Source: Escherichia coli (GTDB taxonomy: Bacteria; Pseudomonadota; Gammaproteobacteria; Enterobacterales; Enterobacteriaceae). From it: a stretch of DNA of 64,000 bases. Under the pieces are notes generated by a model. It made no database searches and was not told the DNA's origin. It was given only the letters and a program-made list of their open reading frames with translations. Below, one piece after another: positions 2,952-9,270 of the stretch. The position numbers were made by a program, and so were the translations under genes. The stretch lies in the NCBI RefSeq assembly GCF_003334405.1, contig NZ_QOWM01000005.1, one strand, 5' to 3'. The first letter of the stretch is position 1. Every line of letters begins with the position of its first letter.

Positions 2952-4015
2952 TGTACGTTGCCGTGAAAGGGGGCGAGAAGGCGATCGACGCCGCCCACGC
3001 CCTGCAAGAGAGCCGACGCCGAGGCGATACCGATTTGCCCGAACTGAGCGTCGCCCAGATTGAACAGCAGCTTAACCTCGCGGTAGATCGCGTGATGACC
3101 GAAGGCGGCATTGCCGACCGCGAACTGGCGGCGCTGGCGCTGAAACAGGCCAGCGGCGATAACGTTGAAGCGATTTTCCTGCTGCGCGCCTACCGCACCA
3201 CGTTGGCGAAGCTGGCGGTAAGCGAGCCGCTCGACACCACCGGGATGCGTCTCGAACGCCGTATCTCCGCCGTTTATAAAGACATTCCCGGCGGCCAGCT
3301 GCTTGGCCCAACCTACGACTACACCCATCGCCTGCTCGATTTTACCCTGCTGGCAAACGGCGAAGCGCCGACGCTGACCACCGCCGACAGCGAACAGCAG
3401 CCGTCGCCGCACGTTTTCAGCCTGCTGGCGCGTCAGGGGCTGGCGAAGTTTGAAGAGGATAGCGGCGCACAGCCGGATGACATCACCCGCACGCCGCCGG
3501 TTTACCCCTGCTCACGCTCCTCCCGTTTGCAGCAGTTGATGCGCGGCGACGAAGGCTATTTGCTGGCGCTGGCCTACTCCACCCAACGCGGTTACGGGCG
3601 CAATCACCCGTTCGCAGGCGAGATCCGCAGCGGCTATATCGACGTGTCGATTGTGCCGGAAGAGCTGGGATTTGCGGTGAACGTCGGCGAACTGCTGATG
3701 ACTGAGTGTGAAATGGTTAACGGTTTTATCGACCCGCCGGGTGAGCCGCCGCACTTCACGCGCGGCTACGGGCTGGTGTTCGGCATGAGCGAGCGCAAAG
3801 CGATGGCGATGGCGCTGGTCGACCGCGCTCTGCAAGCCCCGGAGTACGGCGAGCACGCGACAGGCCCGGCGCAGGATGAAGAGTTCGTGCTGGCACATGC
3901 CGACAACGTCGAAGCCGCAGGCTTTGTCTCACACCTCAAACTCCCCCACTACGTCGATTTCCAGGCCGAACTGGAGCTACTCAAACGTCTGCAACAGGAG
4001 CAGAACCATGGCTAA
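2951..4015 (+). CDS. phnI: C-P lyase core complex subunit PhnI
   Basis: ORF 2831..4015 trimmed to ATG at 2951 ([16 protein letters not shown]...), 354 aa; overlaps phnH stop (TGATG). Confidence 0.92.
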   Translation: MYVAVKGGEKAIDAAHALQESRRRGDTDLPELSVAQIEQQLNLAVDRVMTEGGIADRELAALALKQASGDNVEAIFLLRAYRTTLAKLAVSEPLDTTGMRLERRISAVYKDIPGGQLLGPTYDYTHRLLDFTLLANGEAPTLTTADSEQQPSPHVFSLLARQGLAKFEEDSGAQPDDITRTPPVYPCSRSSRLQQLMRGDEGYLLALAYSTQRGYGRNHPFAGEIRSGYIDVSIVPEELGFAVNVGELLMTECEMVNGFIDPPGEPPHFTRGYGLVFGMSERKAMAMALVDRALQAPEYGEHATGPAQDEEFVLAHADNVEAAGFVSHLKLPHYVDFQAELELLKRLQQEQNHG

Positions 4016-4853
4016 TCTGAGCGGCTACAACTTTGCCTACCTCGACGAGCAGACCAAACGCATGATCCGCCGCGCCATCTTAAAAGCGGTGGCGATCCCC
4101 GGTTATCAGGTGCCGTTTGGCGGGCGCGAGATGCCGATGCCGTACGGCTGGGGAACCGGCGGCATTCAGCTTACCGCCAGCGTGATTGGCGAAAGCGACG
4201 TGCTGAAGGTGATTGACCAGGGCGCGGATGACACCACCAACGCCGTGTCGATTCGCAACTTCTTCAAGCGCGTGACCGGGGTAAACACCACGGAACGTAC
4301 GGACGATGCGACGGTTATCCAGACGCGTCACCGCATCCCCGAAACGCCGCTGACCGAAGATCAGATAATTATCTTCCAGGTGCCAATCCCCGAGCCGCTG
4401 CGCTTTATCGAGCCGCGCGAAACGGAAACCCGCACCATGCACGCGCTGGAAGAGTACGGCGTGATGCAGGTGAAACTGTATGAAGATATCGCCCGCTTCG
4501 GTCATATCGCCACCACCTACGCCTATCCGGTGAAGGTAAATGGGCGCTACGTGATGGACCCGTCGCCGATCCCGAAATTCGATAACCCAAAAATGGACAT
4601 GATGCCCGCCCTGCAACTGTTCGGCGCGGGGCGCGAGAAGCGCATCTATGCGGTGCCGCCGTTTACCCGCGTGGAAAGTCTCGATTTCGACGATCACCCG
4701 TTCACCGTTCAGCAGTGGGATGAGCCATGCGCCATCTGCGGATCGACCCACAGCTATCTTGATGAAGTGGTGCTGGATGACGCCGGAAACCGCATGTTTG
4801 TCTGCTCCGATACCGATTATTGCCGCCAACAGAGCGAGGCAAAAAACCAATGA
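4008..4853 (+). CDS. phnJ: C-P lyase PhnJ (radical SAM-type C-P bond cleaving subunit)
   Basis: ORF 3876..4853 trimmed to ATG at 4008 (MANLSGYNFAYLDEQTK...), 281 aa; C-terminal CX2CX21CX5C cysteine cluster. Confidence 0.92.
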   Translation: MANLSGYNFAYLDEQTKRMIRRAILKAVAIPGYQVPFGGREMPMPYGWGTGGIQLTASVIGESDVLKVIDQGADDTTNAVSIRNFFKRVTGVNTTERTDDATVIQTRHRIPETPLTEDQIIIFQVPIPEPLRFIEPRETETRTMHALEEYGVMQVKLYEDIARFGHIATTYAYPVKVNGRYVMDPSPIPKFDNPKMDMMPALQLFGAGREKRIYAVPPFTRVESLDFDDHPFTVQQWDEPCAICGSTHSYLDEVVLDDAGNRMFVCSDTDYCRQQSEAKNQ

Positions 4854-5608
4854 ATCAACCGTTACTTTCGGTCAATAACCTGACCCACCTTTACGCGCCG
4901 GGCAAAGGCTTTAGCGATGTCTCTTTTGATTTATGGCCGGGGGAAGTGCTGGGCATTGTCGGGGAATCCGGCTCCGGGAAGACCACGCTGCTGAAGTCGA
5001 TCTCCGCGCGCCTGACGCCGCAGCAGGGGGAAATTCACTACGAGAACCGTTCGCTGTATGCAATGAGCGAGGCCGACCGCCGTCGCCTGCTGCGTACCGA
5101 ATGGGGCGTGGTGCATCAGCATCCACTCGACGGCCTGCGCCGCCAGGTGTCGGCGGGCGGCAATATCGGCGAGCGGCTGATGGCGACCGGGGCACGTCAT
5201 TACGGCGATATTCGTGCCACCGCGCAGAAGTGGCTGGAAGAGGTGGAGATTCCCGCCAACCGGATCGACGACCTGCCGACCACCTTTTCCGGCGGTATGC
5301 AGCAGCGTTTGCAGATTGCCCGCAACCTGGTGACGCATCCGAAGCTGGTGTTTATGGATGAACCGACCGGCGGGCTGGATGTGTCGGTGCAGGCCCGCCT
5401 GCTCGACCTGCTGCGCGGCCTGGTGGTGGAGCTGAACCTCGCGGTGGTGATTGTCACCCATGATTTAGGCGTCGCCCGCCTGCTGGCGGACCGTTTGCTG
5501 GTGATGAAGCAGGGGCAAGTGGTGGAGAGTGGGTTAACCGACCGCGTGCTCGACGACCCGCATCATCCGTATACACAGCTGCTGGTGTCATCGGTTTTGC
5601 AGAATTGA
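4850..5608 (+). CDS. phnK: ABC-type ATPase-like C-P lyase accessory protein PhnK
   Basis: ORF 4820..5608 trimmed to ATG 4850 ([15 protein letters not shown]...), 252 aa; Walker [10 protein letters not shown]. Confidence 0.92.
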
Positions 5609-5610
5609 GC

Positions 5611-5700
5611 CGGTGCCGGATGCGGCGTAAACGCCTTATCCGGCCTACAAATGCGCTCCCCGTAGGTCGGATAAGACGCGTCAGCGTCGCATCCGACACC
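5611..5700. repeat. REP/BIME element (two inverted REP units)
   Basis: gccggatgcggcgtaaacgccttatccggcctac and cgtaggtcggataagacgcg...gcgtcgcatccgaca between phnK and phnL. Confidence 0.85.
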
Positions 5701-7532: not shown

Positions 7533-8089
7533 TGATGGGAAAACTGATTTGGTTAATGGGGCCGTCCGGCTCCGGGAAAGACAGCCTGCTGGCGGAACTC
7601 CGCCTGCGGGAACAAACTCAGTTACTGGTGGCGCATCGCTACATCACGCGCGATGCCAGCGCCGGAAGTGAAAACCATATCGCCCTGAGCGAGCAGGAGT
7701 TTTTTACCCGCGCGGGGCAAAATCTGTTGGCCTTAAGCTGGCACGCTAACGGTCTGTATTATGGCGTCGGCGTCGAGATTGATCTCTGGCTGCACGCCGG
7801 ATTCGACGTGCTGGTCAACGGCTCACGCGCCCATCTGCCGCAGGCGCGGGCGCGCTATCAATCGGCGCTGCTGCCCGTCTGTTTACAGGTTTCGCCGGAG
7901 ATCCTCCGCCAGCGCCTGGAAAACCGTGGCCGTGAAAACGCCAGTGAAATTAACGCCCGCCTGGCGCGCGCCGCCCGCTATACTCCACAGGATTGCCATA
8001 CGCTCAACAATGACGGCAGCCTGCGCCAGTCGGTCGACACGCTGCTGACGCTGATCCATCAGAAGGAGAAACACCATGCCTGCTTGTGA
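7532..8089 (+). CDS. phnN: Ribose 1,5-bisphosphate phosphokinase PhnN
   Basis: 185-aa ORF, P-loop GPSGSGKDS; overlaps phnM stop. Confidence 0.93.
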
Positions 8090-8510
8090 GCTTCGCCCGG
8101 CCACGCAGTACGACACCGACGCGGTTTACGCGCTGATTTGTGAGCTAAAACAGGCGGAGTTTGACCACCACGCGTTTCGCGTGGGTTTTAACGCCAATCT
8201 GCGCGACCCAAACATGCGCTACCATCTGGCGCTGCTTGATGGCGAAGTTGTCGGCATGATCGGCCTGCATTTGCAGTTTCATCTGCATCATGTCAACTGG
8301 ATCGGCGAAATTCAGGAGTTGGTGGTAATGCCGCAGGCGCGCGGTCTGAACGTCGGCAGTAAGTTACTGGCGTGGGCAGAAGAAGAAGCCCGCCAGGCCG
8401 GGGCCGAAATGACCGAACTTTCGACCAACGTGAAGCGCCACGACGCGCACCGTTTCTATCTGCGCGAAGGCTACGAGCAGAGCCACTTCCGCTTCACCAA
8501 GGCGCTGTAA
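8076..8510 (+). CDS. phnO: GNAT aminoalkylphosphonate N-acetyltransferase PhnO
   Basis: 144-aa ORF overlapping phnN 3' end by 14 bp. Confidence 0.92.
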
Positions 8511-8511
8511 C

Positions 8512-9270
8512 ATGAGCCTGACCCTCACGCTCACCGGCACCGGCGGCGCACAGGGCGTTCCGGCATGGGGCTGCGAGTGTGCGGCCTGCGCCAGAGCGCG
8601 GCGCTCGCCGCAGTATCGCCGCCAACCGTGCAGCGGCGTAGTGAAGTTTAACGACGCAATCACCCTGATCGACGCCGGGCTGCACGATCTCGCCGATCGC
8701 TGGTCGCCCGGATCGTTCCAGCAGTTTTTGCTGACGCATTATCATATGGATCACGTCCAGGGGCTGTTTCCGCTGCGCTGGGGCGTTGGCGATCCGATCC
8801 CGGTTTACGGCCCGCCGGATGAACAGGGCTGCGACGATCTGTTTAAACATCCGGGCCTGCTTGATTTCAGCCACACGGTGGAACCGTTTGTGGTGTTTGA
8901 TTTGCAGGGGTTACAGGTCACGCCCCTGCCGCTCAACCACTCAAAACTGACCTTCGGTTATCTGCTGGAAACGGCACACAGCCGGGTGGCGTGGCTGTCT
9001 GACACCGCAGGCTTGCCGGAAAAAACGCTGAAATTTTTACGCAATAATCAGCCGCAGGTAATGGTGATGGATTGCAGTCACCCGCCGCGCGCGGATGCAC
9101 CGCGTAATCACTGTGATTTAAATACCGTGCTTGCGCTGAATCAGGTTATCCGCTCGCCACGGGTGATTCTGACCCATATCAGCCACCAGTTTGATGCGTG
9201 GCTGATGGAAAACGCACTACCGTCAGGGTTTGAGGTGGGGTTTGATGGGATGGAGATTGGGGTGGCGTGA
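8512..9270 (+). CDS. phnP: Metallo-beta-lactamase-fold phosphodiesterase PhnP
   Basis: 252-aa ORF, HYHMDH motif; last gene of phn operon. Confidence 0.93.

Follow-up and report, generated by a model that had tools for sequence, protein, structure and literature searches.

Where most of the genes of an operon overlap or abut and the few spacers left between them are filled with palindromic repeats, it is interesting to know whether the overlaps and the repeats set the expression of the individual genes or are only the ordinary form of such an operon. The phn locus at the beginning of a window of 64,000 nucleotides of Escherichia coli DNA (the whole stretch analysed, to which all coordinates refer) raises this question. 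The original prediction, made from the sequence alone, was that dense translational coupling runs through phn and that REP elements in its only sizeable gaps may act as mRNA stabilisers or decay punctuation between transporter, regulator and lyase segments. This paper discusses what the junctions and the repeats are, how far they are conserved, and which role can be assigned to the repeats.

The phn Locus

The stretch is E. coli K-12-like DNA, with 2 mismatches to MG1655 over 10.6 kb, and the locus is phnCDEFGHIJKLMNOP, a compact operon of 14 genes already known from E. coli. It does not differ structurally from the phn operon as published (Chen 1990; Makino 1991; Metcalf and Wanner 1993): the order of the genes, their overlaps and the cryptic allele of phnE all agree. 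All genes lie on the plus strand. The window opens with the 3' end of phnD, the gene for the periplasmic phosphonate-binding protein (1-278, stop codon TAA at 276-278, from the RefSeq annotation of an identical strain and from the sequence), followed by the permease gene phnE (384-1171), a frameshifted pseudogene according to the RefSeq annotation, the sequence and the literature (PMC3463581). The frameshift is that of the cryptic K-12-type allele and is caused by an extra copy of an 8-bp repeat at 789-811. A ribosome-binding site of its own, GGAG, lies 5 nt 5' of the ATG; the start of the gene is placed at 384 by PGAP, whereas the MG1655 annotation begins phnE1 at an ATG at 333, inside a REP. 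After a 20-bp gap comes the regulator gene phnF (1192-1917, RefSeq annotation and sequence), then the genes for the core complex of C-P lyase, phnG, phnH, phnI, phnJ and phnK (1918-5608), and finally phnL to phnP (5719-9270).

Under phosphate starvation phn is seen as one transcript whose coverage declines along the operon, in data without end mapping, and full-length phnC-P transcripts were assembled under starvation, while the assembly from one heat-shock sample included a phnGHIJK sub-transcript that ends at the phnK-phnL gap (PMC3734233). A phnO deletion is polar on phnP (PMC3463581), a polarity that may be of transcriptional or of translational origin. The literature on phn under phosphate starvation yielded neither 3' ends or half-lives of transcripts nor ratios of proteins.

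Gene Junctions and Translational Coupling

The nine junctions listed in the original prediction are exact and match both the RefSeq gene calls and the sequence. They comprise phnF/G (1915-1920, a 0-bp gap with TGA followed directly by ATG), phnG/H (2367-2370, ATGA, an overlap of 4 bp), phnH/I (2949-2953, TGATG, 1 bp), phnI/J (4008-4015, 8 bp), phnJ/K (4850-4853, ATGA, 4 bp), phnL/M (6396-6399, ATGA, 4 bp), phnM/N (7530-7534, TGATG, 1 bp), phnN/O (8076-8089, 14 bp) and phnO/P (8508-8514, TAAcATG, a 1-bp gap). The span to which they had been assigned, 4008-9270, covers phnJ to phnP but is too short for the list, the phnI/J junction falling on its first base and phnF/G, phnG/H, phnH/I and the phnD-phnE REP all lying upstream of it. 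Among the phn junctions inside the window, gaps above 20 bp are confined to phnD-phnE (279-383, 105 bp) and phnK-phnL (5609-5718, 110 bp), as had been claimed; the phnC/phnD gap in E. coli is 24 bp, and the corresponding junctions of other species could not be used because PhnC cross-matches PhnK and PhnL.

These overlaps are ordinary, conserved operon packing. Junctions with a gap of 1 bp or less make up 9/12 in phn and 9/16 of the other operon-like junctions in the whole window (Fisher p=0.43), so that the idea of unusually dense overlaps in phn, which do not exceed the local norm, was rejected. The nrf and mdt operons of the same window, with coupled ATGA and TGATG cistrons, share with phn the junction classes of -4, -1 and -8, and the longer run of coupled junctions in phn is not a significant difference. 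The overlaps are nevertheless conserved across phn loci from 80 other species: within the Enterobacterales loci, a gap of 1 bp or less is kept at phnF/G and phnH/I in 100% and at phnI/J and phnL/M in 97%, and the junctions of the phnG-phnK region are conserved in 83-100%. Moreover, for ten of the 12 starts the upstream gene contains a ribosome-binding site, scored at -5.5 to -10.6 kcal/mol compared with a background mean of -2.6. A ribosome that ends one cistron should be able to begin the next, since the downstream ribosome-binding site sits within the upstream gene. Translational coupling in phn is therefore plausible from conserved overlaps and embedded ribosome-binding sites, but operons of E. 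coli usually have this geometry, and overlap by itself is no proof of coupling.

Identity of the Repeats

REP sequences are indeed present in both large gaps, their palindromes recurring elsewhere in the window and in none of the shuffled sequences, but each gap holds two inverted REPs, i.e., a BIME, rather than one REP element. The BIME of the phnD-phnE gap (282-368, plus strand; REP324 in MG1655) consists of the units 282-318 and 335-368, and that of the phnK-phnL gap (5615-5698, plus strand) of the units 5615-5648 and 5662-5698. Each of these four units is an imperfect palindrome of about 35 nt with a GTAG/CTAC end and folds at -16 to -21 kcal/mol; the pairs of the two gaps fold at -50 and -61 kcal/mol (z-scores -5.0 and -6.7), and in the minimum-energy fold the arms pair together across linkers of 16 nt in phnD-phnE and 13 nt in phnK-phnL. 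More REP copies lie at 27223-27595 and 38168-38201, while shuffles give 0, and REP-containing queries match a median of at least 25-27 places per E. coli genome. Both phn repeats are extragenic, lying between stop and start codons, and the first is already catalogued as "Tandem phnD phnE", 4323247-4323333 in MG1655 (bioRxiv 10.64898/2026.03.23.713779, supplement).

Two other identities were considered for the repeats and rejected. No U-tract or T-run follows either repeat and a terminator scan gave no site there, so they are not intrinsic terminators. The Rfam model naRNA4 (RF02564) matches 285-365 on the minus strand with 69.1 bits against a gathering threshold of 59.5; this model in effect describes a REP pair and the phnK-phnL repeat scores at most 42.7 bits, below the threshold, and a separate small-RNA gene was dismissed.

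Repeats of a different sequence family, BoxC, also known as PIT or TMECO intrastrand-triplex repeats (PMC4666352), are found in these phn slots in further strains of E. coli and in other genera. In the window a BoxC element, TMECO no. 22 of MG1655, lies on the minus strand at 9294-9329, 24 nt past the phnP stop (PMC4666352, Table 1), with a partial second copy at 9369-9394, and both copies mark the 3' end of the operon. In strain 98222 the BoxC after phnP is absent and the phnP-yjdP gap is just 34 bp. Earlier work on BoxC, as far as it is summarised in PMC4666352, found no terminator or promoter activity.

The phnD-phnE Spacer

By comparison across species the phnD-phnE spacer is ancient and always present. 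The two genes overlap in 0 loci, and the gap folds at -15 kcal/mol or better in 44 of 45 loci, one per species; in the window the first hairpin begins 3-7 nt past the phnD stop. Within the same operons the gap is also more structured than those at E/F, J/K, M/N and G/H (33/33 versus 21/55; Mann-Whitney p=5e-7, in species that are related to each other, so that the p-value overstates their independence); some phnE starts of Pantoea and Erwinia are probably called too far downstream. In E. coli the spacer holds a REP pair, two BoxC or one BoxC, with a palindrome directly past the stop in all three alleles; that is, the structure is retained while the repeat family switches.

This arrangement resembles the REP stabilisers of malE-malF and hisJ-hisQ and the differential decay of ABC-transporter operons (Newbury 1987; Dar and Sorek 2018, PMC5927463), in which a REP or stable hairpin lies directly after a binding-protein gene and ahead of a permease gene of one transcript. 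Among the E. coli operons for ABC transporters in which regulation by decay was found, the stabilised gene is in each case that of the binding protein, and transcript 3' ends are located at stable hairpins (PMC5927463). The phn operon differs from them in that phnD is the second gene (phnC-phnD-REP-phnE) and twelve more genes follow. By analogy, the phnD-phnE repeat most likely serves as an mRNA stabiliser in the malE-malF fashion: its palindrome would block 3'-to-5' exonucleases after downstream cleavage, perhaps with a weak attenuation of read-through, and the phnC-phnD part of the mRNA, which encodes the abundant binding protein, would outlast the part for the permease and the lyase. The predicted role as stabiliser or punctuation thus agrees well with the comparative data and the analogy at phnD-phnE, and much less so at phnK-phnL.

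The phnK-phnL Spacer

The BIME of this spacer starts 6 nt past the phnK stop and ahead of the phnL ribosome-binding site (GAGG, 5709-5712). Close relatives have coupled junctions of 7-10 nt here, of the 'TAAgaggccaacATG' type, in which the ribosome-binding site follows the stop, and the inserts sit exactly between these two. Judged from this comparison, the E. coli repeat is an insertion into a formerly coupled junction. A structure is found in the slot in 17/80 loci, some species bearing their own REP types there, and 63/80 have none; since most species do without it, any function of the spacer is not needed for the pathway. In the 5388 E. coli genomes with the junction, about 4843 (~90%) carry the BIME and 546 (~10%) a 176-bp BoxC insert. 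An empty slot was not found in E. coli with a synthetic joined-junction query, and 24/24 sampled rows had an insert, although a handful of exceptions is possible. The REP pair would uncouple the translation of PhnL from that of PhnK, and would add a modest upstream-biased step in expression, of phnGHIJK over phnLMNOP.

The repeats do not part transporter, regulator and lyase, and this portion of the original prediction is wrong. They divide the operon into CD, EFGHIJK and LMNOP: the first falls within the transporter genes, between binding protein and permease, the second within the lyase genes, between the core PhnGHIJK and PhnLMNOP, and the regulator gene phnF is flanked by no repeat on either side.

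Possible Roles of the Repeats

The explanation that we regard as probable is that of a compact, known operon whose two spacers were colonised by palindromic repeats, which would act at the RNA level as a stabiliser at phnD-phnE and as an uncoupler at phnK-phnL. Anatomy, conservation and the place of the insertion are shown by the sequences, and the effects on the RNA are inferred. A characterised repeat in the neighbourhood is REP325, between the tandem genes yjdM and yjdN just upstream of phnC, which like the phn repeats is built of Y/Z2-type units and which is a dual element, stabilising the upstream gene and attenuating the downstream one; it has 12 units, whereas the phn repeats have 2 each. 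Genome-wide, tandem pairs with a REP are on average upstream-biased, though REP effects depend on context and half-lives are not uniformly changed (Harris et al., bioRxiv 10.64898/2026.03.23.713779). That average bias also argues against the possible, though less probable, reading of the repeats as neutral or selfish fill, tolerated wherever the operon has non-coding bases, with the phnD-phnE hairpin of other species an unrelated older feature. Coding overlaps leave hardly any other insertion site; the phnK-phnL slot is patchily occupied across species; different repeat families enter the same slots, and across E. coli strains their alleles assort independently; strain 98222 lacks the BoxC after phnP; and REP positions differ between strains (Harris et al., bioRxiv 10.64898/2026.03.23.713779). 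All of these points favour neutral fill. Against it stand the near-universal phnD-phnE structure, stronger than that of the other gaps, and the E. coli genomes, which leave essentially no room for an empty phnK-phnL slot.

A role mainly in translation, in which a REP near the stop stalls the terminating ribosome, with mRNA cleavage, tmRNA tagging and less PhnD and PhnK, is rather unlikely. According to Liang and colleagues, a REP near the stop codon reportedly lowers the output of the upstream protein, the threshold being said to lie within about 15 nt of the stop. Both phn REP pairs begin at most 7 nt past the upstream stop, inside that distance, and this proximity, which predicts lower upstream output, would count against the upstream-stabilising reading. 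Such stalling is the mechanism reported by Liang, Rudd and Deutscher (Mol Cell 2015), and the cryo-EM core complex with a single PhnK subunit bound (PMC9947105) would suit a reduced PhnK. But less PhnD conflicts with the usual need for surplus binding protein, and no tagging of PhnD or PhnK was found in the literature. Terminators or attenuators, intrinsic or Rho-dependent, giving phnCD, phnE-K and phnL-P transcription units are improbable. REP325 attenuates yjdN about 8-10 fold, partly in a Rho-dependent manner (bioRxiv 10.64898/2026.03.23.713779), and the declining coverage under phosphate starvation (PMC3734233) would fit; however, neither repeat has a U-tract or a scan hit, REP325 fragments of 2-4 hairpins have no detectable Rho dependence, 2 being the number of hairpins in each phn repeat, the sole listed Rho-binding peak near REP324 is antisense to phnD and hence irrelevant to the phn mRNA, full-length transcripts are assembled under starvation, and the downstream genes are required for growth on phosphonate. 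Roles at the DNA level or as a separate RNA (gyrase, IHF or HU binding; a nucleoid-associated RNA such as naRNA4) are very improbable, even with the phnD-phnE repeat above the Rfam threshold on the minus strand, for that match is antisense to the only known transcript, the phnK-phnL repeat falls short of a model that is effectively a REP pair, and Harris et al. saw no nucleoid role for REP325/naRNA4 (bioRxiv 10.64898/2026.03.23.713779).

Significance

The operon layout, the overlaps and the REPs can all be found in textbooks or catalogues, and the role proposed for the REPs restates the malE-malF model; the observation is correct but ordinary and matters little alone. Its modest added value is comparative. 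E. coli strains provide a natural allele series at phnD-phnE (REP pair, one BoxC, two BoxC) and at phnK-phnL (REP pair, BoxC), and close relatives supply an insert-free coupled phnK-phnL junction for comparison. A tentative further reading, which we hold to be doubtful, is that at two fixed positions of the phn mRNA the structure, rather than the sequence, is under selection, mobile palindromes being recruited as interchangeable modules. It rests on the hairpin after phnD, kept across the Proteobacteria and in E. coli while REP and BoxC swap, and on the phnK-phnL slot, which is apparently filled in all of about 5400 E. coli genomes despite the tightly coupled 7-10 nt junction of the close relatives. 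If it is true, such modules would set the ratios PhnCD : PhnE-K : PhnL-P, including that of PhnL to the core complex. With its allele series and the insert-free junction of the relatives, the phn operon would suit the study of how interchangeable palindromic repeats tune expression within an operon, and would also suit asking whether the uncoupling of PhnL from PhnK affects the assembly of C-P lyase.

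Gene Overlaps in the phn Operon

Bases 1-14000 of the window are 100% identical to many E. coli genomes, and the phn region differs from that of K-12 MG1655 by 2 bases across 10.6 kb. On the plus strand RefSeq places the 3' end of phnD (to 278), a frameshifted phnE (384-1171), phnF (1192-1917), phnG (1918-2370), phnH (2367-2951), phnI (2951-4015), phnJ (4008-4853), phnK (4850-5608), phnL (5719-6399), phnM (6396-7532), phnN (7532-8089), phnO (8076-8510) and phnP (8512-9270). The original prediction described overlapping or abutting genes at nine junctions from phnF/G to phnO/P, and all nine descriptions are exact, every stop and start codon having been read directly in the sequence; only phnD-E (105 bp) and phnK-L (110 bp) have gaps of more than 20 bp, both with REPs (palindromic repeats of about 35 nt). 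The span assigned to these features, 4008-9270, includes phnJ to phnP but leaves three junctions and the phnD-E repeat upstream, with phnI/J at its first base. The observation is therefore correct apart from its span, and the features described are already known.

The density of overlaps is not unusual, that is, gaps of 1 bp or less occur at 9 of the 12 phn junctions versus 9 of 16 other operon-like pairs in the window (Fisher p=0.43), and junctions of -4, -1 and -8 are likewise present in the als, mdt, nrf and yjcH-actP operons of the window. Past base 14000 the annotation is that of strain FORC_081; because its coordinates seem shifted relative to the window past ~27 kb, gene-to-gene distances alone were used. 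In addition, a GGAG/GAGG ribosome-binding site lies 5-10 nt upstream of 10 of the 12 phn starts, the sites of phnN and phnP being weak; because these sites are within the preceding gene, coupled re-initiation across the junctions is plausible.

A PhnK-based scan gave 80 loci, whose sources include Enterobacterales, Vibrionales, Pseudomonas and alpha-proteobacteria; the Phn proteins were mapped onto these loci and each junction's gap was measured. Among the Enterobacterales loci, gaps no larger than 1 bp are found in 100% at F/G and H/I, 97% at I/J and L/M, 93% at N/O, 88% at J/K, 83% at G/H, 80% at M/N and 3% at K/L. This packing is old and conserved, phnK-L excepted.

Repeats in the phnD-E and phnK-L Gaps

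Each of the two gaps holds one BIME, two inverted REPs: at 282-318 and 335-368 in phnD-E (gap 279-383, MG1655 ~4323231-4323335; catalogue name REP324), and at 5615-5648 and 5662-5698 in phnK-L (gap 5609-5718, MG1655 ~4317896-4318005). The phn REP units are found again elsewhere in the window and shuffles yield none; REP-containing queries have a median of 25-27 matching places per E. coli genome. Single units fold at -16 to -21 kcal/mol and the pairs at -50.5 and -61 kcal/mol (z-scores -5.0 and -6.7). Neither phn repeat has a U-tract, and a terminator scan reports no site there.

The phnD-E pair scores 69.1 bits (285-365, minus strand) versus the Rfam threshold of 59.5 for naRNA4 (RF02564), a family built on units of REP325, the repeat in the yjdM-yjdN operon just upstream of phnC; the phnK-L pair stays below this threshold at 42.7 bits. 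Elsewhere, four further REP copies at 113-bp spacing (27223-27595), probably REP321 between yjcO and gltP, form an array apparently longer than its FORC_081 counterpart, and one more exact copy (38168-38201) is close to the acs-yjcH gap.

Comparison of the phnD-E Gap

phnD and phnE overlap in none of the compared loci, the minimum gap being 33 nt. A fold of -15 kcal/mol or lower is predicted for the gap in 44 of 45 loci, usually starting 0-8 nt past the phnD stop. In Pseudomonas, Vibrio-like and Rhizobiales loci the structure takes the form of a simple GC-rich hairpin, and in Enterobacteriaceae that of a REP or BoxC repeat (BoxC being the same as PIT and TMECO, PMC4666352). Among gaps of 40-130 nt, -15 kcal/mol is reached by 33/33 at D-E versus 21/55 at E/F, J/K, M/N and G/H (Mann-Whitney p=5e-7, a value which overstates independence because the loci are related). 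In E. coli three alleles were found, with gap lengths of 62 bp (one BoxC), 105 bp (the REP pair) and 125 bp (two BoxC), and in all three a palindrome directly follows the phnD stop.

MG1655 annotation begins phnE1 at ATG 333, within the second REP, which shortens the gap to 54 bp, and PGAP places the start at 384, 5 nt downstream of a GGAG site; the 17-codon REP-encoded extension (333-383) is probably a mis-annotation. Within phnE, the 8-bp unit GCTGGCGT is present almost three times (789-811); this repeat causes the frameshift of the cryptic K-12-type allele, and removal of one copy gives the full-length permease. The hairpin that the terminator scan flags there is a by-product.

Comparison of the phnK-L Gap

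A structured phnK-L insert is present in only 17 of the 80 loci. At the insert-free junctions of close relatives, cagaacTAAgaggccaacATG (Citrobacter sp.), TAAgaggcgaacATG (Leclercia) and TGAggccaacATG (an Enterobacter genome), the phnL ribosome-binding site directly follows the phnK stop, with a spacer of 7-10 nt; the E. coli junction with the repeat removed would read TGAGGCGAAAAATG. Where present, inserts lie exactly between the phnK stop and this ribosome-binding site and are of the host genome's own repeat type: REPs of E. coli, Enterobacter/Pluralibacter, Citrobacter or Pseudomonas type, BoxC in Pseudocitrobacter and a long palindrome in Pelagibacterium. In E. coli, ~4843 genomes have the REP pair and 546 a 176-bp BoxC insert, which sum to the ~5388 genomes having the junction. 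An empty slot was not found in E. coli with a synthetic "empty" query, 24 of 24 sampled rows having an insert, and the slot appears to be always occupied.

The motif CCCGAACCA(C/A)GAGG, which separates the phnL start from the last REP (window 5699-5718; loci L018 and L014), is common to E. coli and an Enterobacteriaceae genome (L018), so the insertion may be old, or the motif may move together with the repeat. Furthermore, a Pseudocitrobacter faecalis locus (L006) encodes a PhnK (6001-6756 plus flanks) 99% identical to that of E. coli, with near-identical junction flanks, a phnK-L gap of 298 bp with three tandem BoxC pairs and a phnD-E gap of 251 bp with BoxC, which suggests either recent operon transfer or a mislabelled genome.

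Repeat Alleles and the Operon 3' End

A BoxC unit, TMECO no. 22 of MG1655 (PMC4666352), lies 24 nt past the phnP stop (9294-9329) and is followed by a partial copy (9369-9394), both in the convergent phnP-yjdP gap. E. coli strain 98222 has no BoxC after phnP and a phnP-yjdP gap of 34 bp. Repeat alleles at phnD-E, at phnK-L and after phnP assort independently between E. coli strains (loci L003/L091, L088/L092 and L089): strain 1916D18 (L003/L091) carries BoxC at both phnD-E (one unit) and phnK-L, and 98222 (L088/L092) two BoxC at phnD-E and the REP pair at phnK-L. The coding overlaps are identical in strains of differing repeat alleles.

Possible Roles of the Repeats

The original prediction suggested that the REPs may be stabilisers or decay punctuation dividing transporter, regulator and lyase segments, and this interpretation is partly supported. 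The segmentation is wrong because one repeat is within the transporter genes and the other within the lyase genes; the actual split is phnCD, phnEFGHIJK and phnLMNOP. In every E. coli ABC-transporter operon found under differential decay, the stabilised gene is the binding-protein gene, and stabilised 5'-most genes mostly have a 3' end just past a stable hairpin, e.g., malE-malF (Dar and Sorek, PMC5927463). By analogy, the phnD-E palindrome would be a protective 3' structure favouring phnC-phnD and possibly also a weak attenuator. REP325, beside phnC, has a dual effect, stabilising the gene upstream of it and attenuating the one downstream; its fragments of 2-4 hairpins show no Rho dependence, and tandem pairs with a REP are upstream-biased genome-wide with large variance (Harris et al., bioRxiv 10.64898/2026.03.23.713779).

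The phnK-L repeat would be a later insertion disrupting a coupled junction, and it probably creates a small step from phnGHIJK to phnLMNOP. Under phosphate starvation a single phnC-phnP transcript was assembled, with coverage falling along it, and in one heat-shock sample a phnGHIJK unit was assembled whose end lies at the K-L gap (PMC3734233).

Both phn repeats begin no more than 7 nt after the upstream stop codon, and a competing effect of ribosome stalling and tmRNA is possible; a repeat close to a stop codon was reportedly linked to such stalling and tmRNA action by Liang et al. in 2015. The comparative pattern is a minor addition to what is known: the structure is retained and the repeat families are replaced, and the phnK-L slot is apparently always filled in E. 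coli.
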